In this document: positions 4,842 to 60,368 of the stretch, piece after piece
Numbering within the stretch: the stretch's first letter is position 1
How the letters are laid out: each line of letters begins with the position of its first letter
Assembly (NCBI GenBank): GCA_043803385.1
Contig: JAZDKA010000041.1
Coordinates: 19,799 to 83,798, forward strand
DNA: 64,000 nucleotides
Source of the DNA: Patescibacteria group bacterium
Lineage (GTDB): Bacteria > Patescibacteriota > Minisyncoccia > Moranbacterales > JAKLHP01
Direction: 5' to 3'
The notes under the pieces: model-generated
The model's database searches: none
The model's input: the letters and a program-made list of their open reading frames with translations, nothing else
Told to the model about the DNA's origin: nothing
Position numbers and translations under genes: made by a program

Positions 4842-4868
4842 ATCAGATTTTAACCTGATCCTGTGGCT
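4842..4868 (-). terminator. Rho-independent terminator for the 4850-5287 gene
   Basis: ggatcag/ctgatcc stem followed, on the minus strand, by a T-run (aaaaataaaaa on the plus strand). Confidence 0.5.
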
Positions 4869-5287
4869 ATAGATCCGAAAAATTTCGTGTAATAATCTCC
4901 ATATAGCCGTATAATGTTTTCGTCTAAGCCCAATCCCTTTCCATATTTCATAAAATCTTCTAATGAAGGAAAGTGGCTGAGATCAAGTTCCGAAAGAACA
5001 ACGGAGAACTCTACAAAACAATTTTGGCAGCTTCTGTATGTTCTCTTGAGTTCTGACTCAAAATTCTCGTGCCGATACTCGTAATCTATCGGCGATCTCT
5101 CCAGCGAATAAATTTCCGCTCCGTTTTTTATGAACCAGACCCTTTTCCAAAAACACATACCAGTTCTCCAGATTTCAATGGAAACTCCATGCCAGTTGCA
5201 ATCGTATAATTTTTGGGGAGTATCAGCTGCAAGCTTATTTGTTTCCTCTAAAGTTTTATGCATTTCTTCTATGACTCTGATATCCAT
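4850..5287 (-). CDS. Hypothetical protein, foreign-looking (strong SD, higher GC)
   Basis: A 145-aa ORF preceded by GAGGAGGTAAAA-ATG, whereas neighbouring genes lack SD. No recognisable domain. Confidence 0.5.
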   Translation of the reverse strand: MDIRVIEEMHKTLEETNKLAADTPQKLYDCNWHGVSIEIWRTGMCFWKRVWFIKNGAEIYSLERSPIDYEYRHENFESELKRTYRSCQNCFVEFSVVLSELDLSHFPSLEDFMKYGKGLGLDENIIRLYGDYYTKFFGSIATGSG

Positions 5288-5561
5288 TTTTACCTCCTCG
5301 AAATATTATATAATGAGTTTAACCTGAATAATTAATTGCTGTCAAGAAAGCTACAAAACTAAAAATAATTATTTTGATAACTTATAGAAATGAAAAAGAT
5401 TCAGACGCTTTGCATTGTTCATTTTGAATGCCATTATTTTTAAAAAATAAAAAGTTTAAAGGAAAATTTATTTTTGAAGGGATGAATAAAATTATTGATT
5501 ATAGTTTAAAAGAAATATAAAAAATACTTAATACAAAATACTTTATACTAGATACTAGTCT

Positions 5562-6017
5562 ATGATCGCATTTGAAAAATCAGTCGGAGCGGTGATTTTT
5601 AGGAGAGAAAATAATAAAATTTATTATCTCCTGCTTAAATATAGGAACGGTCATTGGGATTTTCCAAAAGGGCACGTAGAAAATGATGAAGTAGAGGAAG
5701 AAACAATGGCAAGAGAAGTCAAGGAAGAAACGGGAATTAATGATTTAAAAATAATTCCTGGATTTTCTGAAAAAATTCGTTTTTTTTATAGAGCTAAAGG
5801 TAATGAACGCGAAAGAAGAAAAGCAGAGAATAGAAAAACTATGATAACAAAAAGGGTCATATTTTATTTGGCCGAAACTTTTCAAAAAGAAATAAAATTG
5901 TCTATTGAGCAAACGGATTATATCTGGCTTGAATTCGATAAAGCTCTGGATAAAATTACCTACGAAAAACCCAAAAAAGTCCTTAAAAAAGCCAATAAAT
6001 TTCTTGAAAAATCTTAA
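5562..6017 (+). CDS. Nudix hydrolase
   Basis: Nudix box GHWDFPKGHVENDEVEEETMAREVKEETGI (GX5EX7REUXEEXGU). Confidence 0.8.
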   Translation: MIAFEKSVGAVIFRRENNKIYYLLLKYRNGHWDFPKGHVENDEVEEETMAREVKEETGINDLKIIPGFSEKIRFFYRAKGNERERRKAENRKTMITKRVIFYLAETFQKEIKLSIEQTDYIWLEFDKALDKITYEKPKKVLKKANKFLEKS

Positions 6018-6126
6018 AAATGGCTATTTTGACCTTAAGCTGATTTTAAGGTATTATTAACAGCATACAAATACAAAAATAAAATAGGGGTTTTTATAAA
6101 CCGTAATACGCTAGGTTAGTTTTTTT

Positions 6127-7209
6127 ATGTTTAAAAAATTTGAAAATTTTTCTAAAATGATAGGAGGATTATTCGGTAAAGTTTCCCAGGATATCGGAAT
6201 CGATCTTGGAACAGCCAACACTTTGGTATACGTTAAAGGAAAAGGGATTATGATCAATGAACCTTCTGTTGTAGCCGTTAACAAAAAAACCGGACAAATT
6301 TTAGCTATCGGGAAAGATGCCAAAAGAATGGTTGGAAAAACCCCGAGTCATATTGTGGCAACCAGGCCATTAGTTGACGGGGTAGTGAGCGACTTTGAAA
6401 TTACTGAACAAATGCTCCGCCATTTTATTAATAAAGTCGGAAAGCAATCCTTTTCTCTTATTCCTCGCCCAAGAGTGCTCATTGGAATTCCTTCAGGAAT
6501 AACAGAAGTCGAAAAGAAAGCAGTTGTTGATGCCGCAACCAATGCGGGAGCAAGAGAAGCTTTTCTTATTGATGAACCGATGGCGGCGGCAATTGGAGCG
6601 CGCCTTCCAGTAACGGAAGCAGCGGGGAATATGGTGGTAGATATCGGCGGAGGAACTTCAGAAATCGCGGTAATATCTCTGGGCGGAGTGGTAGTTTCAA
6701 GAAGTTTGCGTGTAGCCGGAGATGAAATGAATGAAGATATCGTGAGATATTGCCGGGACGAATTCAATCTGCTGATTGGAGAGAAAACAGCTGAGGATGT
6801 AAAAATAGCCATCGGAAGCGCTTATCCGATGAAAGAAAGCATGACTCTTCCTGTTCGAGGAAGAGATCTTATCAGCGGGCTTCCAAAAGAAGTTATCGCC
6901 AATGACGAGCAAATCAGGCAGGCATTATCAAGGTCAATCAGGATCATTGTTAATAATATCAAATCGGTAGTAGAAGATACTCCGCCGGAACTTTTGGCCG
7001 ATGTGATGCAAAGGGGGATAATATTGGCCGGGGGTGGAAGTTTGATCCGCGGAATGGATAAATTAGTTGCCAACCAAACTGAGATGCCGGTTAGAATGAT
7101 GGAAGATCCTTTGACAGCCGTAGTTCGCGGAACTGGAATAGTGCTTGAAGATCTTGAAAATCTTAAGGACGTCTTGGTTGAAAGCGAATACGGAAAATCC
7201 CTTATTTAA
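6127..7209 (+). CDS. mreB: Rod shape-determining protein MreB
   Basis: Has GIDLGTANT, EPSVVA and DIGGGTSE actin-fold motifs. Length 360 aa. Confidence 0.9.
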   Translation: MFKKFENFSKMIGGLFGKVSQDIGIDLGTANTLVYVKGKGIMINEPSVVAVNKKTGQILAIGKDAKRMVGKTPSHIVATRPLVDGVVSDFEITEQMLRHFINKVGKQSFSLIPRPRVLIGIPSGITEVEKKAVVDAATNAGAREAFLIDEPMAAAIGARLPVTEAAGNMVVDIGGGTSEIAVISLGGVVVSRSLRVAGDEMNEDIVRYCRDEFNLLIGEKTAEDVKIAIGSAYPMKESMTLPVRGRDLISGLPKEVIANDEQIRQALSRSIRIIVNNIKSVVEDTPPELLADVMQRGIILAGGGSLIRGMDKLVANQTEMPVRMMEDPLTAVVRGTGIVLEDLENLKDVLVESEYGKSLI

Positions 7210-7302
7210 CTACGAATTACGAATTTTATACAAATATACGAATGTACTAATATTTTTTAATTCGTATATTGGTATATTTGTACTTGATTAGTAATTCGTA
7301 GT
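7210..7302 (+). repeat. Family A MITE-like palindromic element (ctacgaattac...gtaattcgtag)
   Basis: Terminal inverted repeats ctacgaattac/gtaattcgtag with a nested inner palindrome tacaaatatacgaat/attcgtatatttgta. A near-identical reverse-complement copy is at 31114-31206. Confidence 0.8.
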
Positions 7303-7308
7303 CTATTT

Positions 7309-8121
7309 ATGTCTTTTAACTTTTTTCAAACAAAACTTTTCAAGGTGATTGCCGTATCTTCAATAGCATTTTTTTTCATAATTATAAATCCCTACAAGAT
7401 TTTTAATCCAGTTCGCTCGGTATTTTTAGTGATTTTTTCTCCAATTCAGAAAGTAGCTTATGGGCTGTCTTTTGAAATTAAACAAGTCAAAAATTTTCTT
7501 TCTTCCATAGGCCAGCTAAAAAACGAAAATGAAAAGCTTATAAAAGAAAACAGGGAACTTTTGTCTTTGAAAATAAGCCTTGAAGAAGCAGGAAGGGAAA
7601 ATGAAATTTTGCGCCGGGAACTAAAACTGCTTCCAATGGATAAATTTAATCTTGAAGGAGCTTCACTGGTAGGGAAAGATCCTCATGGAAAAGGCGATTG
7701 GATTGAGATTGACAAAGGGGGAAAGGATGGAATTGGCGAGGAAATGCCGGTTGTTGTCGGTTCAGGAATTTTAATAGGGAAAGTAAGCGAAGTTTTTCCG
7801 ACGACTTCGAAAATCGTCCTGCTTAGCAATCCAGGGAGCGCCATAAATGCCGTAGATTCGAAAACCGGTTCCAAGGGAGTAGTTCGAGGAGAATATGGCC
7901 TGGGAATAATAATGGATATGGTTCTCCAAAGCGAAGCCTTGAATCAAGGCGATGATGTGATTACTTCCGGAATAGGCAAGGAATTTCCCAGAGGACTCCT
8001 GATAGGAAAAGTGTCCGCGGTAAATCCTTCAGAAGATAGGCTTTTTCAAAAAGCGATAATTTCTTCTCCAGTGGATTTTAATAACTTGCAGTTCGTTTTT
8101 GTCGTTAAAAAAGGCATTTGA
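7309..8121 (+). CDS. mreC: Rod shape-determining protein MreC
   Basis: N-terminal TM segment, a coiled-coil region (ENEKLIKENRELLSLK), and a C-terminal beta domain. It sits between mreB and mreD. Confidence 0.75.
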   Translation: MSFNFFQTKLFKVIAVSSIAFFFIIINPYKIFNPVRSVFLVIFSPIQKVAYGLSFEIKQVKNFLSSIGQLKNENEKLIKENRELLSLKISLEEAGRENEILRRELKLLPMDKFNLEGASLVGKDPHGKGDWIEIDKGGKDGIGEEMPVVVGSGILIGKVSEVFPTTSKIVLLSNPGSAINAVDSKTGSKGVVRGEYGLGIIMDMVLQSEALNQGDDVITSGIGKEFPRGLLIGKVSAVNPSEDRLFQKAIISSPVDFNNLQFVFVVKKGI

Positions 8122-8130
8122 TAAAAAATA

Positions 8131-11068: not shown

Positions 11069-11148
11069 AATTAAAAATAAAAAAACAGGGCAACACATTT
11101 ATGTGCGCCCCTTCGAACTTTCGAAATTTTGGTCAATCTCCTATTGAC

Positions 11149-11691
11149 CTACGTTCTCATTTTTTTGATGGTAATTATCGCTTTCTTGAGATTCTCCAGG
11201 TAGAGAGGGGTATTAATAGCTGCGAGAGCATCCATCGAAATATTCACGGCTACTATGCAAATAACGTTGAGAGCTTCACACTTTGCAGAGCTTTCGCTAC
11301 ACACTTTTAGTATCGAGCAGTTTTCGCATATATCATCGAAAACTGCATCGATGCCTTCCATACCCATCTTTTCCAGAGACGATGAGGTTGCTCGCCTTTT
11401 GTGTGTAGCTGGCTTTTCTTCCGGATTCTCGGCAGCTTCCTCAATCTGCTGATTAAGATTGTCAATGGCCTGTTGCACGGTTGATTTGAGATCGGGCATT
11501 TCAGCTTCGCGGTTGATCTTGCTTATCGCGTTGCTGAAAGTTTTAATGAGTCCGAGGATATCCTCGGGCGGAACTATTCCTCCTGCGGAATACACTTCTG
11601 CCCAATGGCTCAACTTAGACACCAGAGTTAAAGATTCCGAAAGTTCTTCCATACAAATCAAATGAACCGGTCTCCACTTTTTTTCGTCCAT
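11149..11691 (-). CDS. Hypothetical Cys-rich protein, foreign-looking
   Basis: A 180-aa ORF with AAAGGAGGATTCAAA-ATG SD and higher GC and codon bias than its neighbours. C-terminal CENCSILKVCSESSAKCEALNVIC cluster. Confidence 0.5.
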   Translation of the reverse strand: MDEKKWRPVHLICMEELSESLTLVSKLSHWAEVYSAGGIVPPEDILGLIKTFSNAISKINREAEMPDLKSTVQQAIDNLNQQIEEAAENPEEKPATHKRRATSSSLEKMGMEGIDAVFDDICENCSILKVCSESSAKCEALNVICIVAVNISMDALAAINTPLYLENLKKAIITIKKMRT

Positions 11692-11761
11692 TTTGAATCC
11701 TCCTTTTTGGCTTTATTGAACAACATAATAAGATAACACTCCTAGCGCTAGCTGTCAATAT

Positions 11762-25145: not shown

Positions 25146-25487
25146 TCATATCCCGAGTGTTTTTTTTACTGCATCCGACAATTCATATTCCGAGCAACTA
25201 TGGGCGTTGTCTCTTACTTTTCTAAATGAGAATCCCCAGCTAGGAATATTGGTTATGCCAAAAATTGGTGTTTCTTCCTCGATTGACCTTATAAATTTCT
25301 CAATCTCAGAAAAATCGTGGGTAAGAAGTATCGCCACGGCATCGACTACTTCATTCTTAAGGATCTTTATTGCTTCCTCAATCGAATTAGACTGAAGCAG
25401 ATTTACCTCTCCAATGAATTCCAGAGCCAGTCTTCTGAGAAAACAGAGGTCCGGATGAATCAAAAGCAAGTTCTTTTCATTAGCCAT
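25146..25487 (-). CDS. Hypothetical protein (degenerate receiver-like fold?), foreign-looking with strong SD
   Basis: A 113-aa ORF preceded by AAGGAGGGACAGCA-ATG. No conserved Asp pocket is recognisable. Confidence 0.4.
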   Translation of the reverse strand: MANEKNLLLIHPDLCFLRRLALEFIGEVNLLQSNSIEEAIKILKNEVVDAVAILLTHDFSEIEKFIRSIEEETPIFGITNIPSWGFSFRKVRDNAHSCSEYELSDAVKKTLGI

Positions 25488-25613
25488 TGCTGTCCCTCCT
25501 TATTTATTTTTCATTTCATACTGCGTTGGTAGATATTATCTGATAAATCGGAAATAGTCAAGCGGCGGCTTGATACTTCATACTTTCTACTTTATACTTA
25601 AAAGTAGATACTA

Positions 25614-30488: not shown

Positions 30489-30655
30489 TTTTGTCTGCGA
30501 GGTACGAGCAGCTACAAAAATGAGCATCCCGCACCAATTCTATTAGTTAACTTTTTATTATTTAAAATTAAGCCGCACTTGCCTAAAGTAAGGCGATTCC
30601 GTGAATAAAACTATAAATTTACTCAAGGATATATTCGGAATTGGTGCGGGAAGGC
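30489..30655 (-). repeat. Family B MITE-like element copy B2, filling the whole HIT-pyrH spacer
   Basis: TIRs gagcatcccgcaccaattc / gaattggtgcgggaag and the core aggcgattccgtgaataaaa. It ends ...cgcagacaaaa-ATG. Confidence 0.8.
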
Positions 30656-36739: not shown

Positions 36740-36912
36740 GCAATTTTTATCTGCGAGCGTAGCGAGCAGCTATAAAAATTAGCATCCCGCACCAATTCGC
36801 AGTTTATATTTTAATTTTTTTGAAATTTGAGCCGCAGCCTGCCTCAGGCGAGGCGATTCCGTGAATAAAATTATAAATTACCCGTAGCTTTATTCGGAAT
36901 TGGTGCTGGACA
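36740..36912 (-). repeat. Family B MITE-like element copy B3 (its right TIR supplies the last codons and stop of rmlD)
   Basis: ttagcatcccgcaccaattc ... gcctgcctcaggcgaggcgattccgtgaataaaa ... cggaattggtgctgg. Confidence 0.8.
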
Positions 36913-37825
36913 AGTATTCCTTTAATGCTTCTTTCCAGCTTCGAAGTGGGTTTAGTTTGGTATTTATCAAAACTGAAATTTCCGGTCTTTTGGCTGGCCT
37001 TTTGAGGTCTTTCGAAGCTATCGGAATAACTTTAGTTTTGACTTTCTTTAACTTATATAATTCTAACGCGGCTTGGTGCCATGTGCAAGCGCCGGAATTG
37101 GTAACGTGATAAATTCCAAAAGGTTTTTTGGCTTCAACTATTTCTTTAGTTTTTCGCGCCAAATCCGGCGCGTAAGTATAGCAGCTTATTTCATCGTTAA
37201 CTATTTTTACAGATTTATTTTTTCCCCCTAATTCTAGCATTACATCAAAAAAACTTTTTTTTGCTCCTTCGGCTTTGGCAGGTTTTCCGAATAATTTTGA
37301 AGTTCGGATAATATAATACTTCTTAGTGTTCTTTTGAACTTCTATTTCTCCCAAAAGTTTTGTTTTTCCGTATTTATTTATTGGTTTCGGCTTGTCGCTT
37401 TCCTTAAATCCTATTTCCGGCTGAAAATTAGCGTGAAGCATGCAGGAATGACAAGAATGAGCGCATCCCTCCGGCTCTTCTATTTTTGGCTTTCCGTCAA
37501 AAACATAATCAGTTGAATAATGAATGAACATTGCTCCGATTTTTTTGGCGATTTTAGCGAGATATCCTAGAGCCAATCCGTTTATTTTTTTGGCAATTTC
37601 AAACTCTTTTTTTTCTTCGCATTTATCCACAGCATTGTAAGCGGCGGAATTGATAATAATTTTAGGATTTATCACTTTAATTTTTTTGTGAACGGCCACT
37701 TCATTGGCAATATCCAAATCATCTTTGTCCCAAGCGATAACTTTGTAATCCTTATCAGACTTAAAGACAGAAACCAATTCCTGTCCCAGCATTCCTTTCG
37801 CGCCGATTATTAGTATCTTTGCCAT
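36890..37825 (-). CDS. rmlD: dTDP-4-dehydrorhamnose reductase
   Basis: Start taken at MAKILIIGAKGMLGQEL (Rossmann fold). Has YGKTKLLGE (YxxxK). The ORF-track N-terminal extension MVRDAH... is read-through into repeat B4. Confidence 0.75.
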   Translation of the reverse strand: MAKILIIGAKGMLGQELVSVFKSDKDYKVIAWDKDDLDIANEVAVHKKIKVINPKIIINSAAYNAVDKCEEKKEFEIAKKINGLALGYLAKIAKKIGAMFIHYSTDYVFDGKPKIEEPEGCAHSCHSCMLHANFQPEIGFKESDKPKPINKYGKTKLLGEIEVQKNTKKYYIIRTSKLFGKPAKAEGAKKSFFDVMLELGGKNKSVKIVNDEISCYTYAPDLARKTKEIVEAKKPFGIYHVTNSGACTWHQAALELYKLKKVKTKVIPIASKDLKRPAKRPEISVLINTKLNPLRSWKEALKEYLSSTNSE

Positions 37826-37984
37826 TTTTATCTTCGAGTGAAACGAGAAGCTATAAAAATGAGCATCCCGCACCAATTCTTTAAATTAAACTTTTTTATT
37901 ATTTGAGATTAAGCTGCAGGCGATTCCGCGGATATAGATTTTTAATATTGCATATATCTATATTCGGAATTTGGTGCGGGATTT
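37826..37984 (-). repeat. Family B MITE-like element copy B4
   Basis: gagcatcccgcaccaattc ... aggcgattccgcggata ... cggaatttggtgcggga. Confidence 0.8.
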
Positions 37985-40499: not shown

Positions 40500-40862
40500 T
40501 CACGGAATATGGACAAACTGAATGTGATAAGCGTATTCTTTGTCTCCTTTTCGGATGATGGTCAGATCTTTTTGCCTGGATAGTAACTCGATATTATAAC
40601 GAGGATCACTATGCCCCACGAGAAAAATGTACTCCTCATCTACAAAATCAACCATCATGAACAGCCTTTTGGGATGAAGCTTTATTAAATCTCCTCTCGA
40701 GAGCTGTTTTAGCGTATTTGCCAGTTGAGTTGCTTGAGTTTTTTCTTCTGCAGTCGCCTTTTCTTTCCAATTTGGAATAGTGAACTGTAAGACTACAATA
40801 CCAACCAAAAGAATACCAAGAATTACTAAAAGAACAGTAGACATTACTTTCTTTGTGTTCAT
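40500..40862 (-). CDS. Hypothetical membrane-anchored small protein
   Basis: A 120-aa protein with a single N-terminal TM segment. Confidence 0.45.
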   Translation of the reverse strand: MNTKKVMSTVLLVILGILLVGIVVLQFTIPNWKEKATAEEKTQATQLANTLKQLSRGDLIKLHPKRLFMMVDFVDEEYIFLVGHSDPRYNIELLSRQKDLTIIRKGDKEYAYHIQFVHIP

Positions 40863-40930
40863 ACTAAACCTCCTCGCATTGTATTTTTTATTTTATTTCA
40901 CCTGAAACTATATCTAAAATCATTATAAAT

Positions 40931-43088: not shown

Positions 43089-43239
43089 AAAACCGATGCG
43101 AATCTACGAATTAAATGCGAATCTACGAAATGTATGAATCGCGAAGTTGACTTAGTAATCTAGCAAAGATGAGTTATATTGTCAATGTTTTTAGGCTTCA
43201 ATAATATTCGGATAGTTTTAATTTATAAATTTCATAAAT

Positions 43240-43665: not shown

Positions 43666-44664
43666 TTAACCGATGATCTGAACTTCCGCATCATGACCGC
43701 CTGCCAGATGTGAGAAAAGTGCCTGTTGCTGACGGGAATGCAGGTCTGCCTTGCCCTCATATTCACCCATGAGGAACTTCATGGCAGTGGTTCTGCAATC
43801 GTTGTACGCCTTTGTGAAATTGTCCGTATGCTTCCGTTCTATTTCCGACGGAAACGGAACTTCGGCAATACCTTCACTGGGCACATAGGTTGTGATGTAA
43901 TATCCGTCTATAATGCGTGGCCGTACAATTGCTGTGCGACCATTGTAGCTTACCCTTACCGTAAGCGGTTTGAGTCTTTTTACTTCCTCTGCCGTTTTTG
44001 ACGGCAGCGTATTCACGGTATAAATTGTTTCGGCATGATTCTGAGCGATTTGTTCGCCCAGTCCGGTAATCGCGGTCTGGATTTCTCCCAAATTACGATT
44101 AGTCGCTTGCTGTCGTCTTTCCCCGTCCTGCCTGCGTCTTTCGTCCTGGCGCCGGTTATAAAGAATATATGCGCCGAGACCAAGGAAGCCGAAGATCAAA
44201 ATTGCTGCCATTATCCGGAAGTTTTTGACAATCATGTCGGATACGTTTCCGAGTCTTTCGTAGAGCCAATCAATGTTGCTCGCATTGACTCTATTGGCTT
44301 CCGTATTTTTGATAACAGCGTCTGCGAGCTTATCCACTGATTTCATCGCAGACTTGTGTACCTCCAGGGCAGCTGCATTCGCTCCTTCGACGGCAACTTT
44401 TATTTTTTTGTCGAGAGCATTAAACGCTCCCTCAACCTTGCCGTCCTTGCTTCCGAGGAGTTTCTTCTCGAGACCGTAGACGCTCCCGACTTTCTTCTGG
44501 ACCGCTTTCGCAATCCCCTCCTCGGTAATCTGAGCCGGCTGAGCCGACTGTCCGGCAACGGACGTGTTGCTGTCAACCTGCGGTACTTTAATTTCCGCTT
44601 GTGCCGTGAAAGACACAAGCACCAATGTCAAGATGGCCATAATGGCCAGAATTTTTGTTCTCAT
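43666..44664 (-). CDS. Hypothetical secreted/membrane protein, foreign-looking (GC ~50%, strong SD)
   Basis: Signal peptide, a central TM segment, and an RRQDERRRQDGERRQ stretch. Preceded by AAGGAGGCATCG-ATG. Confidence 0.55.
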   Translation of the reverse strand: MRTKILAIMAILTLVLVSFTAQAEIKVPQVDSNTSVAGQSAQPAQITEEGIAKAVQKKVGSVYGLEKKLLGSKDGKVEGAFNALDKKIKVAVEGANAAALEVHKSAMKSVDKLADAVIKNTEANRVNASNIDWLYERLGNVSDMIVKNFRIMAAILIFGFLGLGAYILYNRRQDERRRQDGERRQQATNRNLGEIQTAITGLGEQIAQNHAETIYTVNTLPSKTAEEVKRLKPLTVRVSYNGRTAIVRPRIIDGYYITTYVPSEGIAEVPFPSEIERKHTDNFTKAYNDCRTTAMKFLMGEYEGKADLHSRQQQALFSHLAGGHDAEVQIIG

Positions 44665-44674
44665 CGATGCCTCC

Positions 44675-46087
44675 TTATCGTTTGAGTTCTTCGTATTTAT
44701 CAGGAATAGAATCTAGCTTCTTCTCCTGCCCGTGCCTTATCGCTATCTCTTTCCCTTTGAGTTCGAGAATGGCCAAAGCCCAGTTGTAGCGGACCTTGTA
44801 AATGACATTCTGCGCCCCACTCAGGGTTGAGGTTTTGATGTGCTTCTTGGTTTTGGGGTCTTTCTTTGACTCATGGCCATTATTGAAATCCCGTTCGGCA
44901 ATCTCATACTGTTTGATTGCTTTTTCAAGAAGCTCCTTGTTGGTTCTGCCAGTGCAGAAATACCAATCAAGGTAAGCATCTCCGTATTCCTTCCGGAGCC
45001 GTTCGTTGTTATAGGAAGGTGTATCGCAGAATAGCGTACCTTCCTCCATTTCCTTGATCTTTTCGATATAAATTGATGGATTGCAGACTGGCTTCGGTGG
45101 CTCGACTTTCGGTGGCGGACATGGTTCCGGCTTTTTTTCCACAATCACTACTTTAGTTTTTGGTGGAGGAGGCGGACTGCAAATATCCACACCGTTTGGC
45201 GGCGTAGTCGGTCCATCATTAAGAGCTAGAACCATCCAGTCATATGCCGTATCGACATATGCTTCGGTCGTTCCGATTAATCCGCCGAGTGACATAGCTA
45301 CTGCCGTGTCGTCCGGCGAACCAAACAGTTTTGCTCCGGCTGCTCCAGATCCAATTGAGAACCCGGAATTTTTCGGGTCTCTGCGCATCCTGTAGAATGC
45401 AAAGACCCGGCTGGTATTGGTCGTCGCCTTAGCTTCCGCCAAGCAACGTCCCAATGCCGCTCCTTTCGGCCACCCATAGTAACCCTCGCATTCGAACTCA
45501 CCTAAGAGTTGGTCACTCGGATAAATCATAGATGAATCCCAATTCAGGATCACCACAGGTTTGTTATCCGAGTTTCCATTGAATGGCACATGAATAACTT
45601 TTTTCACTTCACCTGAAAAGAGCTTGTGAAAAAATCCGCCTTTCCGGTCCGAGAACGAACCGGAACTTCCTGTGTTGCTAAGTCGCTCTTTGGTATAAAT
45701 CCGATAGAGCGGCTGGCATAAGAAAGGTTTCCAACCGTCAACAGTCGGAAAGAGTGGAGCTCCGACGAAACTTCCTACGGGACCAGGTAACGCAGTGATA
45801 TGTTCCCGCTTATCTTCACTGACATATGTGTTAGTCAGCGAATTATCTGCGGAAGAATTTCCGCTGGTGGCATTTGCGTTGCCACCCTTTCCACCAATAC
45901 CAATAGCAGTCTGTTTCTGCTGTTGGTCTTGATTTTGCTTTTGATTCTGATCCTGCGTGGCGTTTCCGCCGGTTGATGTCGCAGTATTCGAGTTTGAATT
46001 ATCAACATTCGTGCTGACGTCTGCCAACACTGGTCCTGTAAAAATCAGGACCGCCAATGCCATAAATACTACAAAAACTGTCTTCAT
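44675..46087 (-). CDS. Hypothetical secreted protein, foreign-looking. Its N-terminal module matches that of the LPXTG protein at 47450-47995.
   Basis: Signal peptide. ADVSTNVDNSNSNTATSTGGNATQ matches ADVNVSVKNTNKNTATATGGTATQ. A proline-rich PPPPKTKVV...PEPCPPPKVEPPKP segment. Preceded by GGAGGTGCAAT-ATG. Confidence 0.55.
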   Translation of the reverse strand: MKTVFVVFMALAVLIFTGPVLADVSTNVDNSNSNTATSTGGNATQDQNQKQNQDQQQKQTAIGIGGKGGNANATSGNSSADNSLTNTYVSEDKREHITALPGPVGSFVGAPLFPTVDGWKPFLCQPLYRIYTKERLSNTGSSGSFSDRKGGFFHKLFSGEVKKVIHVPFNGNSDNKPVVILNWDSSMIYPSDQLLGEFECEGYYGWPKGAALGRCLAEAKATTNTSRVFAFYRMRRDPKNSGFSIGSGAAGAKLFGSPDDTAVAMSLGGLIGTTEAYVDTAYDWMVLALNDGPTTPPNGVDICSPPPPPKTKVVIVEKKPEPCPPPKVEPPKPVCNPSIYIEKIKEMEEGTLFCDTPSYNNERLRKEYGDAYLDWYFCTGRTNKELLEKAIKQYEIAERDFNNGHESKKDPKTKKHIKTSTLSGAQNVIYKVRYNWALAILELKGKEIAIRHGQEKKLDSIPDKYEELKR

Positions 46088-46283
46088 ATTGCACCTCCGT
46101 GCTGTATTTTTTGATTCTTTTTCCCTATATGAAACCGACTAGGTCGGTTATCTAAATTGTTAAAAAACATTCTTATCTATATTTTTATCCTCCTCCCATT
46201 TTAAGCAAAGTGTTAAGTAAACTATTACTTAAAACGGCAGAGGGACAATGGAATCAATCAGCGCCAGGCGCTGAACATGATTT

Positions 46284-46433
46284 TTATTGAGCCTCTAAAC
46301 TTAGAATATTTTCCTCTAATCTTTTTATCTCATTTTCAGCTAAATCAGCCTCTTTCCAATCCCCATTAAGGAACTGATTGGCTTGAAAAGCTATAAGATA
46401 TTCCAGTTTTTTCAGTAATTCAAATTTAGACAT
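46284..46433 (-). CDS. Possible small protein (49 aa) MSKFELLKKLEYLIAFQANQFLNGDWKEADLAENEIKRLEENILSLEAQ
   Basis: An ATG-initiated ORF below the ORF-track size cutoff, with host-like composition. Confidence 0.25.
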   Translation of the reverse strand: MSKFELLKKLEYLIAFQANQFLNGDWKEADLAENEIKRLEENILSLEAQ

Positions 46434-46492
46434 ATATTTAGGGTTAATTTTTATGGTATTTTCAGAACCTCGTATTCTAGCAGATAACTACA

Positions 46493-46575
46493 GTTCTGTC
46501 AACCCCGCACTAACTTTTTGCTGGCGTAGCCGATTTAGCGCTTTGCGCTTGCAAAAAGTTAGTGCGGGGCAAGTC
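46493..46575. repeat. Family E long-stem hairpin repeat (tgtcaaCCCCGCACTAACTTT...AAAGTTAGTGCGGGGcaag), copy 1; likely bidirectional terminator
   Basis: A 19-bp stem, T-rich on both sides. It is 3' of the sortase gene. Copy 2 is at 55381-55466. Confidence 0.75.
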
Positions 46576-51765: not shown

Positions 51766-52810
51766 TTAAAATAATACTGATGCATCTCCCTGGGAGTTGT
51801 TTATTATTTCCTTTTCGAAATTTTTCATTGGTTCATCTTTGAAATCAACGGTTTCTTCTTCTTTGTTCCAGGAATAATCTTTGGAAAATACCATGATTTT
51901 CATTTTTTTCATTTCTTCGTAAAGAAATTCTCCGAAAGTTTTTTTGGGCAGAAAAATCTGCCTTATTCTTATAAGTTCGGAATCATTTTCTGTTTTTTTG
52001 TCTTCCACTTCAATAATATGGAATCCAAGGGAGCTTTCAATAATGTCGCTTATTTTCCCCTTGTCTGAAGCAAAGACTGCCTTCGATACTTCTTCAATGA
52101 GCTGGTCTTTTTTGAACCACCCAAGCTCTCCCCCATCTTGGGCAGTTGATCCTTTTGAATATTCCATGGCGACATCGGCAAAAACTTTCTTCTTATTGAG
52201 TTCGGCTTTTGCTTTTTCTATTTGTTCTTTTCCTTTCTTGACCGAACTATCTCTGGATGCAAATATTTTTTCAAGCTCCTGGCGGTATAGATCCGGTTTC
52301 ACGACTTTTTCCTTAAAATCATCAATTGACCAGCCGTATAGTTTTTCCAGGTTATTATTCAAATTATCTCCCGTTCCGTATTCTTCCATTTTTCTGCTTA
52401 AATTTTGGCTGACCATCGCATCCGTTATCTTCATACCTTCTTTTCGGGCTAAAATTTCAATCGCTTTGTCTTCGATCATTCTTTCGAGTACTTCTTTCTC
52501 TTTCATCTTCAGCCTTTTTTTTCCATTTTCAGTGGAAAAATCCACCCGCAAATCAACTTTCGAAAAATCCTGGTTTTCATAAAATTTCTTCACTGATTCA
52601 AGATTGTTATTGAGATTTTTAAATGTGATAAAATTATAATTATTCAAAACCGCAACCGGATATGGGATTATTTTTTCCATTTTTTTAACAGCCTTATAAT
52701 CTTTTCCAAATCCGTAAATAAGAATGCCAAAAACAACGATAATAGCTACAGCTACTATCAAACTAGAGTAAACAATAGTTGATATTTTTACTTCATTATC
52801 TTTTGCCATA
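51766..52810 (-). CDS. PpiC-type (parvulin) peptidyl-prolyl cis-trans isomerase, SurA/PrsA-like
   Basis: Start taken at MAKDNEV. N-terminal TM segment. The parvulin domain carries GGELGWFKKDQL...GFHIIEV. Confidence 0.75.
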
Positions 52811-52952
52811 ATTGTCTTTGAGCGTAGCGAGAAGCTACAATTATGAGCATCCCGCATCAATTTTTTAACTGATATTTATATTTATCCAGGTAAGCCGTAG
52901 GCGATTCCGTGGATAAAACTAGCTTTTGTTTTAAATTTTATTCGAAATTGAT
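52811..52952 (-). repeat. Family B MITE-like element copy B5
   Basis: gagcatcccgcatcaattt ... aggcgattccgtggataaaa ... gaaattgattgcggga. The TIRs show co-varying substitutions. Confidence 0.75.
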
Positions 52953-53363: not shown

Positions 53364-53477
53364 TTATTGGGTTCTGATTAGAGGAGCCAATTCAAAAGCA
53401 ATCATAGAAATTACTCCCAAAAGAGTAATTACTATCCAAATAACGCGCAACTTCTTTTTTCTTCGATTATTATGCAT
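53364..53477 (-). CDS. Possible 37-aa small membrane protein MHNNRRKKKLRVIWIVITLLGVISMIAFELAPLIRTQ
   Basis: An ATG-initiated ORF whose stop lies 2 nt before the ftsB start. Basic N-terminus plus one TM segment (FtsL-like layout). Confidence 0.3.
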   Translation of the reverse strand: MHNNRRKKKLRVIWIVITLLGVISMIAFELAPLIRTQ

Positions 53478-53687
53478 GATAATAAAATCAAAAATCAAAA
53501 TTATTTAATTTTATCCTTATTATATCCTATTTTTTTAGACCTGACAAATGCAATAAAAAAAACCGCCATTGGGCCATGAATTAAAGAAAAATGGCAATAA
53601 TATCAATGAGAGAGCAAAGATACTTCTTGCCAATTATATTTTCTTTAAATTCACAGCCCGCTAGCGGCTTAGATTTGCGATTTACCC

Positions 53688-53885: not shown

Positions 53886-54248
53886 CTATAAAATTTTTTC
53901 GATTGTTTCATCAAGGAAATGATCCCAATCCGGCGCATGTCCGTTTGATTTTGCAGATTGCAAAACCTCAATCGATTTGTCTTTTTCAAGCCTCGTGGCT
54001 TTATCCATTGCGAACTCATCGTTAGTTCTGAATGGAATCTGCCAGATCGTAAAATCTTCTTTCATCCAGTACTCGCCAGCTACTCTCCCATATCTGCCAG
54101 TATACTGGTAAAGAGAAACGAATTTCTCTTTAGTGTGATACGTAGTTGTTCTTTTTGACCAGACATAATCTTTAGGTTGTCCACCTTCGATTATGCCTCC
54201 TTCAAAAATTGTAGACCTACTCCAAGGCATTTCTTTAAAAAATTTCAT
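53886..54248 (-). CDS. Hypothetical protein, foreign-looking (strong SD), cassette-like
   Basis: A 120-aa ORF preceded by AAAGGAGGATGT-ATG and followed by the family F element. Confidence 0.5.
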   Translation of the reverse strand: MKFFKEMPWSRSTIFEGGIIEGGQPKDYVWSKRTTTYHTKEKFVSLYQYTGRYGRVAGEYWMKEDFTIWQIPFRTNDEFAMDKATRLEKDKSIEVLQSAKSNGHAPDWDHFLDETIEKIL

Positions 54249-54304
54249 ACATCCTCCTTTGCGTTTTAAGCCCGCATGGCTTTAAGTTTTTTGAAACGAA
54301 CTAT

Positions 54305-54392
54305 GGGATTTTTCCCATTCAAACCCACAAAATAATTTATGAATTTGAATGGAGAGGGAATACTTGCGATGTTGCGTTGCAAGCATTCCCCG
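54305..54392. repeat. Family F element copy 2, contains hairpin gggaatacttgc/gcaagcattccc
   Basis: It lies 3' of the gene 54399-54941. Confidence 0.65.
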
Positions 54393-54398: not shown

Positions 54399-54941
54399 CT
54401 ACTCCTCATGGATAAATTTCAGTAGCTTAATAACTGCTGGAATATCCTTGGGATGCTTGCGCAGGTTGTCTTCAACTCTCCTGCGGGCCTTCGCCAGTTC
54501 TTCTTCTGTCGGAAGAGCCTTGGCAAGTTCCCAATCTCTGACCAGCTCTAACTCAGCTTCTTCAAGTTTTTTCAGAAGCTCATTCCGAAGAGCCATGACA
54601 ACCTCCTTGGCCGTTGCTGGCCTAGAAAAAGAGTCTTTTTCTATTTCGCAATCCGAATCGCACTCCTCAGTATGCTCATGAGGCATCAACCAGCATACTT
54701 CAATGTCAAACCAACCCCCCGTGTGCTTATTTTTTCCCTCAAAGTAATAGCTCTGTATACTTACCCTGAGGATCTCCCCTTCTCTTAGGGGGAAATGATC
54801 AACTTTCATAAGGCTTTCATGGGTGAGTCCTAGAGATGCCAGTCTCTGGGCAAACTCATTTCTTGCTTCAACTTGACCCGCAAGCGAAGCGTCAAGAAGC
54901 GCCTTAATTTCCGCTAAATCTTTTTCTAATAAATCTTTCAT
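54399..54941 (-). CDS. Hypothetical protein, foreign-looking (strong SD, GC ~48%), cassette-like
   Basis: A 180-aa ORF preceded by AAAGGAGAAAAG-ATG. Acidic Cys/His patch HEHTEECDSDCE. Confidence 0.5.
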   Translation of the reverse strand: MKDLLEKDLAEIKALLDASLAGQVEARNEFAQRLASLGLTHESLMKVDHFPLREGEILRVSIQSYYFEGKNKHTGGWFDIEVCWLMPHEHTEECDSDCEIEKDSFSRPATAKEVVMALRNELLKKLEEAELELVRDWELAKALPTEEELAKARRRVEDNLRKHPKDIPAVIKLLKFIHEE

Positions 54942-55380
54942 CTTTTCTCCTTTGCTTCCAGGACTGAGCCCTAGAGCCTTGGATCACTTATATCTGTTTC
55001 TCTGCCATTACTGGTTCAGAGTGCCTAAAGCGAGGGATCTCGGTTTTCGCCGCCCGATTTCGATTTCAAATCGGGAAATATTTATTTTTTAAAACGAAAT
55101 TTCTCTTCTTTGCGAAGAGAGTGATGAAAAAGAATTTTTTTGATGGAAGTTTTGAAGGTTATATAATTGTTTAAAGCCTTAAACTATCCACCCCTCCTTT
55201 TCATCACTTTTTCCACAAAAATAAAAGCGACTAAGAAATTTTTCCGAAAAATTATTCGAGGAAGATTTCTCAATCGCTTTGGTAAATTTTTGAGTCTCTC
55301 TCCTCAATAATTTTTTTGAATTTTGATGAACTGTCATCTGATTTCAGCGTAACGGTCAAGCATATCATACAAAAAAGAAC

Positions 55381-55466
55381 CTGTCAACCCCGCACTAACT
55401 TTATACTGATTATTACAGGCTTTTAGCACCAAAGGTGCTGGTATAAAGTTAGTGCGGGGTCAAGCA
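55381..55466. repeat. Family E long-stem hairpin repeat copy 2 (3' of lepA)
   Basis: ctgtcaaccccgcactaacttt...aaagttagtgcggggtcaag, with a nested inner hairpin agcacc-aaa-ggtgct. Confidence 0.75.
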
Positions 55467-57304: not shown

Positions 57305-57366
57305 ATGTTCCTTATTCTATATTAAAAAAAGCCTTTTTTCAATAGGCATGGAATTTTATAAAAAAA

Positions 57367-57398
57367 TCGCCGTGGGTTCCAGTATGGGTCCCACGGCG
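57367..57398 (-). terminator. Rho-independent terminator after the purE-purC gene
   Basis: gccgtggg-ttccagtatgggt-cccacggc followed, on the minus strand, by a T-run. Confidence 0.65.
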
Positions 57399-57425
57399 GT
57401 GGTGTAAACTTATGCTTTTGTAGTG

Positions 57426-58988
57426 CTACTTTATGCTGTTACCGGTGAGTATCGTGAATATCTTCCGGTATCTATACGCCGTTTGTTCTGACACAAATGT
57501 GGGCAACTCCGGTCCTGGATAGGTTTTATCCCAGCTTAGAGTTTCGAGGTAGTCGCGGACAGGTTGCTTGTCAAGGCTATCCTGTCCTCTTCCCACTTCG
57601 TATTTTTCCATAGACCAGAACCGGGATGAATCGGGCGTAAGCATTTCATCTATGACTATGATCTCATTATTGAGCATTCCGAACTCAAGCTTTGTGTCGG
57701 CGACGATAATTCCCCTTTCCTCGGCAAACTTCGAAGCCTCGATGTATATCTTTAAGCTCAATTCCCTTATCCTTCGCGATGTCTCGGGACATATAAGCTC
57801 GCAGAGTTCAGAAAAGGTTTTGCTTTCATCATGACCTTCTTCTACTTTCGTCGTAGGAGTAAAAATCGGCTTCGAAAGCTTTTGGGATTCTTGCAATCCT
57901 GCGGGTAATTGTATTCCGCATATCATTCCAGTCTCCTGGTAGTCCTTCCATCCGGAGCCCGCCAAATATCCACGCACGACACATTCGGCGAGAATAGGCT
58001 TTGCTTTCCATACCAGCATACTACGACCTCTTAATATATCTCGATATGAATCGCAAATCTCAGGATATTTAAAAACATCCATGGAGATAAGGTGACTGCG
58101 GATGAGATCCCTGAAAAACCAGAACCAGAAGCCCGACAACTGATTCAGGACTTTCCCTTTACTCACAATTCCTGTCGGCAATACGACATCAAATGCCGAC
58201 AGGCGATCGGTGACAACTATAAGTAACTTGTCACCGAGGTCGTAAACATCCCGCACCTTTCCTCTTTTGGGAATCCCGATATCTGTGAAATTCGTTTCTC
58301 TTAATATCTCTTCTTGTATCATATCACGCCTCCTCGCGTTTTGTTGTACATATCTGTTTTCGAGAAAGTTCGTTAGTCCTTTCTTCCTGGCTATTTCAAT
58401 GGCCATTGCCAGTGCGTCCGGAAACTTCAAGCGCATTTGGGGCTTGATTGGTTTAAGTTCAATTACCGGAAGATCTTCTTCTCTATCGTTTACAGCGTGT
58501 ATGCATGCCCGAAGAAAACCCTCAGCACCAACGTAATCCCTGAAAATAACTCTGGTTCCGGGAACGTGAATTATGCTACTGATTGCCGCTTTCGTCTTTT
58601 CAGGATCCTCATCCTCAAAAGCCACTGCATAAACTCTGATATGTGAATCTTGCAGGACGTTCCGAAGAAATGCATCATCACAGCCCGAAAGATGATTCGC
58701 CCAACCTGCGCCGACGATGAGTCTGTCAACATTAGGCACAGAAGGACGATTCTGATTTCCATTGCCGCGACCAAAAATCCTGCCACAATAGCTTCTTAGG
58801 CGATGCTGCACAGCAAGTGTATGTCTATGCTGGCTGTTTATATCGAACCACCTAAGGGATATGGAGCCTTCCATTTCTTTACTGGTTAGATAATCCAGAC
58901 CCCAAATGCATTGCGGCAAATCAGAGTCCGAACCTGTCGCCGCACCGATCCGTAATTTTTGAGGTGCTAATTGCAAGTTTGTCGCCAT
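57426..58988 (-). CDS. purEC: Fusion protein: N5-CAIR mutase (PurE-like) N-terminal domain + SAICAR synthetase (PurC) C-terminal domain
   Basis: N-terminus has GAATGSDSDLP, SQHRH and LIVGAGWANHLSG (PurE signatures). C-terminal half has GKVRDVYDLGDKLLIVVTDRLSAFD (PurC signature). GC ~50%; preceded by GGAAGAGGAGAGATC-ATG. Confidence 0.7.
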   Translation of the reverse strand: MATNLQLAPQKLRIGAATGSDSDLPQCIWGLDYLTSKEMEGSISLRWFDINSQHRHTLAVQHRLRSYCGRIFGRGNGNQNRPSVPNVDRLIVGAGWANHLSGCDDAFLRNVLQDSHIRVYAVAFEDEDPEKTKAAISSIIHVPGTRVIFRDYVGAEGFLRACIHAVNDREEDLPVIELKPIKPQMRLKFPDALAMAIEIARKKGLTNFLENRYVQQNARRRDMIQEEILRETNFTDIGIPKRGKVRDVYDLGDKLLIVVTDRLSAFDVVLPTGIVSKGKVLNQLSGFWFWFFRDLIRSHLISMDVFKYPEICDSYRDILRGRSMLVWKAKPILAECVVRGYLAGSGWKDYQETGMICGIQLPAGLQESQKLSKPIFTPTTKVEEGHDESKTFSELCELICPETSRRIRELSLKIYIEASKFAEERGIIVADTKLEFGMLNNEIIVIDEMLTPDSSRFWSMEKYEVGRGQDSLDKQPVRDYLETLSWDKTYPGPELPTFVSEQTAYRYRKIFTILTGNSIK

Positions 58989-59036
58989 GATCTCTCCTCT
59001 TCCTTTTATAGTTTATTTTCGGCTTCGCGCCGAGTT

Positions 59037-60368
59037 TTATGCGACCTTGTTAAATCTTTCGAATATTTCGTCCACATACTTCAGATTCATCTCCGGATTA
59101 AAACATTCTTCGATTTCTGTGGTTGACAGCAGATTGGAGATTTCAGGGTGACTTTTGACCAGATCGCGGAAACTTTCGTCCTTAGCATTAACAAAGATTC
59201 CGCGCTGGACTGATTTTGCCAGTCCCTCCAGCAGATCATAAGCTATATCCCTGGGCATTGCCTTTTTGGTAAGAGCGATCATAAGTTGCTGGGCAAAAAC
59301 AATGCCGCCGGTTTTCCAAAGATTTCTATTCATTTGTTCAGGAAAGACCTCTAGTTTTTCCATAACAGTTGAAAAACGATCAAGCATGAAATCCAGCAGA
59401 GTTGTAGAATCCGGAATAAAGATTCTTTCCAGAGCGGAATTATCCAAAGATCTTTCGCACCAGAGATTTTCATCCTCGTTTGCCATAACGAGATAACCTC
59501 TCATTGCTTTAGCTAGTCCGCAAGTATTCTCGCTCTTAATGGGATTACGGAGAAAACTTTTTCCAGGCATGGCTGAAGAACCCTTAGCTGTATCCTTTTT
59601 ATATTCGGCAACTTCGCTTAAATCCGTTCCAGCCAAATGTCTTATTTCTGTGGCGAATCTATCCAACGAATTGGAAACACCGACCAGGCAGCTTATATAT
59701 CTGACCAGTAGATCGCGGCTTATAACTTGGTTGGAAATTTTGGCTGGTTTCAATCCGAGGAGTTTGCAAGCAATCCTTTCAATCTCGGGATTTAATGAAT
59801 ATTTTCCTACGGCTCCGGAAATCTTGCCAACTCTGATTTCTTCTCTGGCTGATCGCATTCTAGCCAGATGACGGTCCAATACATCAACCCAGTTGATTAG
59901 CTTTAAACCGAAGGTGATTGGCTCGGCATGGATAAAATGTGTCCGGCCTATCATAATTGTGTGCTTGTGCTCAAGTGCTCGGTGAAATACGACGGTCCGG
60001 AGTCTTTTGACTTGTTCGATCAGTATATCCATAGCCTCGACTAGAAGCATGGCCAATGCCGTGTCTTCAATGTCAAAAGAAGTAACTCCAGTGTGGTAAT
60101 AGATTTTGGTCGATTCATCCAGCAGTTCGGAAACTGCAAGTATAAAGGCGATCATGTCGTGGTCGCCCAATGCCTCGAGTTCATCTGCTCGCTGTAAGAT
60201 TTCCGAAGTGATGACTATTCTTTGTGCGTTTTTATAAACTATCGCGGGTATATTTTCACGCCGTGTCCTAGCCATGAGAATAGCAACCTCAACATTATGC
60301 CAGTAAGTTTTCTTTTTTAACTCTTCCCAAAGTTCCCCCATCGGTTTTCTAGTGTATCTTTCAATCAT
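59037..60368 (-). CDS. purB: Adenylosuccinate lyase
   Basis: A 443-aa fumarase/aspartase-fold protein; the conserved region includes ...GSSAMPGK... Strong SD (AAGGAGGTTATT-ATG). Confidence 0.85.
   Translation of the reverse strand: MIERYTRKPMGELWEELKKKTYWHNVEVAILMARTRRENIPAIVYKNAQRIVITSEILQRADELEALGDHDMIAFILAVSELLDESTKIYYHTGVTSFDIEDTALAMLLVEAMDILIEQVKRLRTVVFHRALEHKHTIMIGRTHFIHAEPITFGLKLINWVDVLDRHLARMRSAREEIRVGKISGAVGKYSLNPEIERIACKLLGLKPAKISNQVISRDLLVRYISCLVGVSNSLDRFATEIRHLAGTDLSEVAEYKKDTAKGSSAMPGKSFLRNPIKSENTCGLAKAMRGYLVMANEDENLWCERSLDNSALERIFIPDSTTLLDFMLDRFSTVMEKLEVFPEQMNRNLWKTGGIVFAQQLMIALTKKAMPRDIAYDLLEGLAKSVQRGIFVNAKDESFRDLVKSHPEISNLLSTTEIEECFNPEMNLKYVDEIFERFNKVA

Follow-up and report, generated by a model that had tools for sequence, protein, structure and literature searches.

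In a 64,000-nt stretch of a Patescibacteria group bacterium (contig JAZDKA010000041.1, positions 19,799 to 83,798 of the forward strand; the whole of this stretch is called the window here), we find ten genes with a strong Shine-Dalgarno (SD) motif upstream of the start codon, among 65 genes that otherwise start without one. We read these SD genes as a flexible gene pool, gained at very different times and probably drawn from genes circulating within the candidate phyla radiation (CPR), whose SD motif is kept because the ribosome can use it. We give this reading a probability of about 0.55. An original prediction, made from the letters of the window only, had proposed instead that the SD genes were multiple independent imports from SD-using donors into an SD-independent host.

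For each of the 65 starts, we duplexed the 20 nt upstream with the 9-nt anti-SD core ACCUCCUUU. The energies were cleanly bimodal across the window. The ten strong genes lie between -8.9 and -12.9 kcal/mol, and the best of the remaining 55 reaches -6.1. As a chance control, 1.5% of the 1,759 non-start ATGs in the window reach -8.9, which gives a binomial P of 4e-8 for ten genes in 65. Shuffling the real upstream 20-mers left 0.73 strong SD motifs on average versus the ten observed. The proposed split into two classes of translation start is thus borne out. All nine SD genes that had been listed fall in the strong class, and the core genes named as lacking an SD (mreB, PBP2, groES, gltX, murI, rpmA, rplI, priA, sortase and htrA) indeed lack it. 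The list was nevertheless incomplete, as it overlooked the gene 40500-40862, which is preceded by gcGAGGAGGtttagtATG. The SD-linked starts reproduce the NCBI protein exactly for nine of the ten genes. The exception is 57426-58988, where NCBI places the start at an ATG 38 codons downstream and obtains 482 aa, compared with 520 aa for the longest open reading frame (ORF). The minus strand carries 45 of the 65 genes and every one of the ten SD genes (hypergeometric P = 0.018); 4850 and 11149, which lie within the plus-strand-dominated first 22 kb, oppose the direction of their neighbours.

The SD-less starts have their own features. A+U accounts for 72-77% of the sequence upstream of them; U is frequent at position -1 (58%), and A is enriched at -4 and -5. 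At about eight of the 55 backbone genes (murI, priA, LigT, the C39-like gene at 20255, 21632, AA kinase, 47450 and lepA), the ATG is preceded, at a distance of 6-9 nt, by a TAnAAT box, and the lepA box is kept in a relative, L085 (the loci of relatives are designated L and a number throughout). Even the internal or closely following backbone genes mreC, mreD, fmt, nifU, 34278 and 49280 score weaker than -3 kcal/mol. We also considered that an SD might compensate for a more structured start region. The two classes do not differ in the folding energy of the -30 to +30 region (-6.1 vs -6.3 kcal/mol), and this idea was rejected.

The genes of the window were taken from a greedy ORF call combined with Pfam and NCBIfam searches. 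The backbone includes secA, mreBCD, PBP2, groES, fmt, def, priA, gltX, iscS/nifU and rpmA, together with pyrG, rplI, rml genes, two htrA genes, lepA and murJ. Pfam also finds CPR-typical families (DUF5671, DUF5656, DUF4012 and a sortase with TSP3 repeats). NCBI deposits the proteins as 'Patescibacteria group bacterium' with V1804_ locus tags, and the closest LepA proteins in GTDB genomes (70-75% identity) are from Candidatus Moraniibacteriota and Parcubacteria. The window comes from a Moranbacteria-like Patescibacterium of the CPR. It holds no tRNA, and no Rfam family matched anywhere in it at gathering thresholds. The SD genes and the elements associated with them are collected in Table 1.

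Table 1. Coordinates of the SD genes, their associated elements and the TAnAAT boxes in the window. Energies (dG, kcal/mol) are those of the duplex with the anti-SD core.
Feature	Coordinates	Strand	SD motif (position)	dG	GC	Remarks
SD gene, 145 aa, hypothetical	4850..5287	-	GAGGAGG (5293-5299)	-12.9	0.384	NCBI V1804_03675
SD gene, 180 aa, hypothetical	11149..11691	-	AGGAGG (11699-11704)	-11.8	0.442	intrinsic terminator at ~11080-11111
SD gene, 113 aa, hypothetical	25146..25487	-	AAGGAGG (25495-25501)	-11.6	0.392	NCBI V1804_03790; terminator follows
SD gene, 120 aa, N-terminal membrane anchor	40500..40862	-	GAGGAGG (40869-40875)	-12.3	0.375	NCBI V1804_03880
SD gene, 332 aa, signal peptide and one internal transmembrane helix	43666..44664	-	AAGGAGG (44670-44676)	-11.1	0.490	GC at third codon positions (GC3) 0.529
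SD gene, 470 aa, secreted	44675..46087	-	GGAGG (46094-46098)	-10.8	0.472	small CPR-only family
Family E, copy 1	46474..46569	-				hairpin CCCCGCACTAACTTT..AAAGTTAGTGCGGGG directly after the sortase stop, fused to promoter TTGACA-17-TGCTAGAAT (TAGAAT)
SD gene, 120 aa, hypothetical	53886..54248	-	AAGGAGG (54253-54259)	-11.8	0.383	
SD gene, 180 aa, coiled-coil hypothetical	54399..54941	-	AAGGAG (54947-54952)	-8.9	0.453	terminator at ~54340-54390
Conserved 5' leader of the 180-aa gene 54399-54941	54942..55095	-				L088 2730-2887; L089 1199-1322
Family E, copy 2	55359..55460	-				same stem directly after the lepA stop, fused to promoter TTGACA-17-TATGCT
purC (SAICAR synthetase) part of the 520-aa ORF	57426..58322	-				NCBIfam PRK13961, 368 bits, residues 230-519
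Degenerate PurE-like N-terminal 222 aa of the purC ORF	58323..58988	-	GAGGAG (58994-58999), weaker	-9.0		
SD gene purB (adenylosuccinate lyase), 443 aa	59037..60368	-	AAGGAGG (60374-60380)	-11.8	0.426	TIGR00928, 400 bits
TAnAAT boxes	upstream of 3722, 16776, 16850, 20255, 21632, 30527, 47995, 57304					geometry expected for leaderless mRNAs

The two classes also differ in composition. The mean GC content is 0.427 for the SD genes and 0.372 for the others (Mann-Whitney p = 5e-4), and GC3 is 0.431 vs 0.360 (p = 0.001). An elevated GC of roughly 40-50% had been claimed for the SD genes; this stands on average and for six of the ten, and it does not hold for the other four, three of which had been listed. 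The claimed difference in codon choice proved to be the sharper separator. At Lys, Glu and Gln codons, the median G/(G+A) is 0.393 in the SD genes and 0.234 in the rest (p = 2e-5), and nine of the ten SD genes exceed 0.33. Their proteins contain less Lys and more Arg.

Selection for high translation of abundant proteins, for example surface-layer-like ones, might produce both an SD and G- or C-ending codons. C-ending codons are indeed raised in the SD genes, and a strong consensus promoter, kept in relatives, lies upstream of the secreted 470-aa protein. However, the host translation and chaperone genes are raised in C-ending codons only, while the SD genes have more of both G-ending and C-ending codons. 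The G-ending fraction is 0.224 in translation and chaperone genes versus 0.417 in the six high-GC SD genes. The codon signature is therefore compositional and not the expression-linked bias of the host, and translational selection was rejected as its cause. Moreover, groES, rpmA, rplI, lepA, gltX and secA have no SD, and neither small cytosolic orphan proteins nor a decaying pur cassette are likely to be among the top-expressed products. We regard this explanation as highly improbable.

We compared the positions of nine of the ten SD genes (all but 25146) with those in relatives, and seven of the nine are missing from the same spot. The backbone orders DUF4012-murJ-lepA-DivIC-PPIase-htrA-DUF5656-htrA-sortase and secA..mreBCD-PBP2-groES..priA..gltX are conserved, minus the missing SD genes. 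The locus L092 (MreB 91%) is colinear with positions 71-20265 of the window and lacks 4850-5287, between murI and NUDIX, and 11149-11691, between groES and rhodanese. The former is also missing from L091. Four window genes that have no SD (SET, MBL, the HD protein at 11762 and DUF5671) are absent from L092 as well, and not every accessory gene carries an SD. In L081, L083 and L084, the interval from the 40931-like gene to the rml genes contains no homolog of 40500-40862.

Between lepA and DivIC, neither L085 (LepA 90%, MurJ 84%) nor any of 80 genome loci around lepA contains 53886 or 54399. These 80 loci keep the order DUF4012-murJ-lepA-DivIC-PPIase-htrA-DUF5656-htrA, and none of them has purB, purC, 53886 or 54399 there. 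In L085, the lepA-DivIC gap holds only a 58-aa membrane ORF, whose homolog in the window is at 53364-53498; hence about 1.95 kb with 54399-54941 and 53886-54248 is extra in the window.

For 4850-5287 we obtained no Pfam, NCBIfam or PHROG match, and 53886-54248 had no relative in the metagenome scan. Lowering the Pfam threshold to E<=1 returned only noise for the hypotheticals. A viral origin was considered and rejected: PHROG gave no match for eight hypotheticals, IMG/VR none for the six scanned, and a tblastn of eight concatenated hypotheticals against 50,697 phage records none. Plasmids gave no match either. Beside 4850-5287 we noticed a 68-aa ORF (MKLGIYQHYKGKFYKV...) at 4631-4837 on the plus strand, which we take to be DUF1653-like (no family search was made on it). 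At about 5390-5520 on the same strand is the collapsed remnant of a NUDIX paralog that keeps its first ~11 and last ~20 codons and is intact in L091 (3220-3675). The two together suggest a history of gene turnover at this site.

The 180-aa gene 54399-54941 has three homologs only among 5.8 billion proteins. Two could be placed, and their contexts differ, one being beside DUF5663 (L088) and the other beside greA (L089). Both carry the identical SD GCAAAGGAGA. In L088, the homolog is followed by another small SD gene, again among SD-less neighbours. About 130 nt of the leader can be aligned with L088, a distant genome in which the protein, at about 52% identity, is no better conserved than the leader, and four compensatory pairs, from two sequences, fall in the predicted helices. 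A covariance model of the leader retrieved only the window, L088 and L089, the 2.3 Mb of CPR loci yielding no other copy, and the leader matches no Rfam family. Judged from its sequence, it is a candidate cis-regulatory RNA with three known copies, and the gene itself looks like a small module passed among CPR genomes.

The pur genes gave a different picture. Neither purB nor purC occurs beside lepA in the 80 genome relatives, and yet a pur cassette is found in L085 at the same murJ-lepA site. There, PurE is separate (SD AAAGGAGG), PurC has its own SD (GAGGGGG), and the lyase is truncated. In the window, PurB is intact and 26% identical to that lyase fragment. The window ORF 57426-58988 contains an internal in-frame GAGGAGG (58329-58335); a distance of 6 nt separates it from the ATG at 58322, the point at which the PurC domain starts. 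The 222-aa region before this domain has no Pfam match, even at E<=1. Against the PurE of L085, it shows a weak similarity of 28% identity over 98 aa, with the motifs GSxSD, SxHR and AGxAxHLxG aligned. We read this ORF as a degenerate purE fused to purC, in which the old ribosome-binding site of purC would have been fossilised. The cassette fits an ancestral acquisition followed by decay or replacement. It seems to be decaying differently in the window lineage and in L085. Other SD-bearing, GC-richer genes occupy the murJ-lepA gap in L008 (9342-9863) and L004 (9051-9860), so the gap may be a recurrent insertion site. Elsewhere, two SD genes of ~510 aa each form a conserved pair ahead of mreB in L093 (6751-9818) and L095 (2348-5407).

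The SD pair next to the sortase (43666-46087) appears to be older still. The 470-aa protein has 16 homologs among the 5.8 billion proteins, and the named ones are from Patescibacteria, Parcubacteria or an unclassified 'bacterium'. We compared its orthologs in six other genomes (L081, L083, L084, L171, L172 and L170), where the identity is 36-49%. The ortholog directly follows the sortase in five of the six; the L170 contig ends short of the sortase. Counting the window, this gene is preceded by a strong SD (GGAGG or GGGGGA) in six genomes out of seven, and by a weaker AAAGGA in L170. The second gene of the pair has an SD in all seven (GGAGG-type in five, GGAGA in two). In the six relatives this second gene always encodes a signal-peptide protein that is unalignable between genomes and has no detectable homology to 43666-44664. 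In the window, its SD overlaps the stop codon of the upstream gene. The sortase itself never has an SD in the genomes compared.

The excess GC of this pair is also retained. The 470-aa gene exceeds its neighbours by 0.07 to 0.11 in hosts with a locus GC of anywhere between 0.365 and 0.475. Both genes of the pair show the excess, and the neighbours have neither an SD nor excess GC. A promoter of the form TTGACAAA-17-TAGAAT-like is kept upstream of the 470-aa orthologs in L081, L083 and L084, and the remaining leader is unalignable. Since GGAGG and its spacing are kept at 36-49% protein identity while the leader cannot be aligned, selection appears to act on the motif, which argues that the ribosome reads it. 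This conservation implies, as far as sequence comparison can tell, that the sub-lineage retains a working anti-SD. These orthologs do not sit easily with the notion of an SD-independent host.

The AlphaFold2 model of the 470-aa protein has a pLDDT of 65, and a PDB fold search with it gave nothing below E=0.1, the only similarities being TPR/14-3-3-like helices at the C-terminus. Within the leader of this gene we observed a 49-aa ORF (46284-46433, minus strand) followed by a GC hairpin, and a 28-aa upstream ORF (46084-46170, minus strand) whose TGA overlaps the main ATG (ATGA). The leader also contains GGGAGGAGG at ~46191-46199, with no start codon at SD distance.

These comparisons bear directly on the imports first proposed. 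If each SD gene were a separate recent import from an SD-using, higher-GC donor outside the CPR, the SD and the GC would be donor traits not yet ameliorated. The atypical GC and codon use agree with this, as does the absence of 4850, 11149, 53886 and 54399 from close relatives. Purine-synthesis genes are not found beside lepA in the 80 genome relatives and, to our knowledge, are unusual in CPR generally, and the named matches of purC include Syntrophorhabdales and Proteobacteria at 62-65%. However, the highest-GC genes (43666-46087) form a module that holds the same position, with its SD, in six other genomes, and the pur cassette is older than the split from L085. Independent and recent acquisition thus fails for the top GC outliers, and the case for it is already weaker at four of the ten SD genes. 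No SD-using donor emerged either from the homolog searches made, among them those with the 470-aa protein, PurC and PurB. All named homologs of the 470-aa protein are from the CPR. The best PurC match (65%) is the CPR copy in L085, and the others are flat at 62-66% over residues ~226-520, the few named ones being Syntrophorhabdales (62%) or Proteobacteria. PurB has no close relative, with library representatives at 58% and then 48% in a library that has no taxonomy. Conserved SD motifs argue, in addition, for use by the host. We therefore find separate recent imports unlikely. What stands of the import proposal is that the SD genes have atypical composition, lie outside the backbone and are mostly missing from the same spot in relatives.

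The window derives from a metagenome-assembled genome (MAG), and SD- and GC-rich segments of other organisms might have been joined to it during assembly. The segments are only 0.4-3.3 kb long, with backbone on both sides within one contig, and at every junction the backbone genes follow one another as in L085 and L092. Independent assemblies from other samples also contain the sortase pair and the pur cassette at these positions. The chance of such a chimera is, in our view, close to negligible.

Repeat hairpins flanking several SD genes had been taken as a further sign of insertion. The hairpin called family E is real, with exactly two copies (46496-46517 and 55381-55402) and a stem of 20-24 bp. 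Each copy is a terminator-like hairpin fused to a promoter. Judging by position, the promoter of copy 1 would give a ~380-nt leader for the 470-aa gene and that of copy 2 a ~410-nt leader for 54399-54941. The 70 nt downstream of SD genes also fold more strongly than those of SD-less genes (-17.9 vs -11.6 kcal/mol, p = 0.015). The so-called family F, on the contrary, consists of individually different intrinsic terminators after SD genes with no common sequence, and long palindromes or inverted repeats occupy many intergenic gaps of the backbone too. We therefore rejected the view that hairpin families mark insertions. As terminators and promoter-linked elements, they mark separate transcription units, not insertion scars.

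We asked how general the pattern is in a pooled survey of 167 Parcubacteria loci with 1,928 ORFs, in which an ORF counted as SD-bearing at dG <= -8.5 and as an orphan when no homolog was found in another locus. SD-bearing ORFs make up 76 of the 1,928 (3.9%), leaving 96% without an SD. Orphans account for 59% of the SD-bearing and 24% of the SD-less ORFs; among ORFs of 100-250 aa, the figures are 73% and 39% (Fisher p = 6e-6). The mean GC of the SD-bearing ORFs is 0.021 above the locus mean. SD families found in other hosts are again SD islands among SD-less neighbours.

Several known systems resemble this arrangement in part. The survey of Tsurumaki et al. 2022 (PMC9297842) reports reduced detection of the anti-SD in Parcubacteria, which explains the rare SD use here (3.9% of ORFs), and describes no conserved SD-bearing minority. 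The putatively transferred genes or small genomic islets that GeneMarkS-2 models as 'atypical' (bioRxiv 10.1101/193490) likewise deviate in GC and codon use, are patchily present and are inserted between conserved genes. Unlike them, the SD genes here have their own start signal and no mobility genes or att-like repeats, and their composition and SD persist in orthologs across seven diverged genomes, which departs from classical amelioration. GeneMarkS-2 groups C and X, with a leaderless promoter box and an SD ribosome-binding site, also combine two start contexts. In group C, however, the SD is on internal operon genes of the core genome, whereas here it is confined to non-backbone cassettes and the internal operon genes mreC, mreD, fmt and nifU lack it.

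Another parallel comes from Bacteroidia. Their ribosomes are reported to be 'blind' to the SD, as the anti-SD is sequestered by bS21/bS18/bS6 (PMC9976891, PMC13000453, PMC13000457), and rpsU keeps a strong SD for autoregulation, which Flavobacterium ribosomes without bS21 translate (PMC9976891, PMC13000453). The likeness is that nearly all genes lack an SD and have A-rich leaders, while a few have a conserved strong SD. The differences are that the phylum is another one, that the SD is found here on purine-enzyme genes and on accessory or orphan genes instead of rpsU, and that the SD motifs are of ordinary length. The window itself contains no rpsU, rpsR or rpsF.

The parallel suggests a native SD regulon, in which ordinary genes of the lineage would be under an SD-dependent mode, perhaps through a ribosome subpopulation with an exposed anti-SD, and the composition would be a by-product. 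Specific families keep their SD over deep divergence, two cassettes have long or conserved leaders and dedicated promoters, and the clade is SD-poor overall, as are Bacteroidia. Flavobacterium provides a precedent (PMC9976891, PMC13000453). Against a regulon, the SD genes have no function or location in common: some encode secreted proteins, others purine enzymes or small cytosolic orphans. The majority are orphans or specific to the strain, which would be odd for a regulon. Their SD motifs are an ordinary 5-7 nt (-9 to -13 kcal/mol with the 9-nt core), unlike the extended pairing of rpsU. A native regulon of this kind appears doubtful to us.

We return to the flexible gene pool, which would work as follows. 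The backbone genes would start without an SD from A/U-rich leaders, a subset of them with a leaderless-pattern -10 box 6-9 nt before the ATG. Several SD genes would be self-contained cassettes placed in gaps of the conserved gene order, as suggested by the sigma-70 promoter seen for two of them and the terminator-like hairpin after most. Their horizontal entry probably happened at very different times. A strain-specific tier would comprise 4850, 11149, 40500 and the 53886/54399 module, and the tier common to a close relative would be purB/purE-purC. The oldest tier, as old as the sampled Moranbacteria-like clade, would be the sortase-adjacent surface-protein pair. The source would be a pool circulating among CPR genomes or their mobile elements and not identifiable donors outside the CPR. 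A cassette that arrives without a host-adapted leader would rely on SD pairing for initiation, and its SD would stay under purifying selection provided that the ribosome retains a usable anti-SD. We infer that the SD class is a stable second mode of initiation and not a decaying label of import.

A number of observations weigh against this reading. As to the mode of insertion, no integrase or transposase domain was found among the 65 window genes, and no flanking direct repeats were found at the SD cassettes; differential loss is thus possible for individual SD genes. Four of the ten SD genes (4850, 25146, 40500 and 53886) have background GC (0.37-0.39). A persistent excess of 0.07 to 0.11 in seven diverged hosts is unexpected for the amelioration of an old import and needs a selective or recombinational cause. 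In the pooled set, some SD calls fall on core genes and are chance matches or wrong starts. As to the ribosome, Tsurumaki et al. 2022 (PMC9297842) detected the anti-SD motif in just 48% of the 16S genes from Parcubacteria. There is no 16S rRNA gene in the window and no 16S 3' end in the fetched loci of relatives.

The finding can be extended to a bolder proposal. The SD could be the hallmark of a CPR-circulating gene pool whose SD-dependent route is regulated apart from the bulk SD-less initiation, as a counterpart of the specialised ribosomes of Flavobacteria. The sortase-linked surface-protein pair would belong to this pool, as would small modules with a leader, such as the 180-aa gene 54399-54941 and its conserved leader of 150 nt. 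Selection or continual exchange within the pool could cause the excess GC. We put this forward as a speculation with a small chance of being right.

We also observed several repeats outside the SD genes. A 76-nt repeat family (72-79% identity) occurs at 30479-30554, 36737-36812, 37818-37893 and 52802-52877, with a related sequence before 25785. In four backbone genes on the minus strand (AA kinase, rmlA-like, rmlD and PPIase), it spans the leader together with the start codon, and it includes a hairpin, ATTTTTATAGCTnCTCG...CGAGCAGATAAAAAT, whose end is a few bases short of the ATG. The repeat may be a regulatory leader common to these genes, or else a small mobile element. Two other short repeat families lie just upstream of it (30580-30651, 36840-36910 and 52888-52927). 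Long imperfect palindromes of ATTCGTA/TAATTCGTAG units fill several intergenic regions of the backbone (7194-7317, 31115-31206, 62315-62353 and about 43100-43190) and extend almost to the start codons, only a few bases away, of mreC, HIT, murJ and GT4; the TAATTCGTAG motif also precedes a gene in L171. At the beginning of the window, the last 14 codons of SecA (SEC-C zinc motif, 1190-1231) recur at 1679-1720 as the C-terminus of the adjoining SET-domain gene with 86% nucleotide identity. A direct repeat of ~127 nt (1725-1851 and 3575-3700, 91-98% identical) brackets an MBL-fold gene and an aminotransferase; in L092, the aminotransferase is present and both MBL and SET are missing.

Much of bacterial diversity belongs to the CPR, in which translation start is almost unstudied. 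A caution follows for the reading of their genomes: atypical GC together with an SD is no proof of recent transfer, because one module keeps both across seven diverged genomes. If SD genes are consistently the flexible or odd part of these genomes, an SD scan would be a cheap marker for accessory and surface genes in CPR MAGs. Gene callers would likewise need a dual start model for this clade, as the disputed NCBI start of the purC ORF illustrates. In that case the ribosome of this sub-lineage must also still read the SD, and the use of the anti-SD in SD-poor bacteria would become testable outside Bacteroidia.

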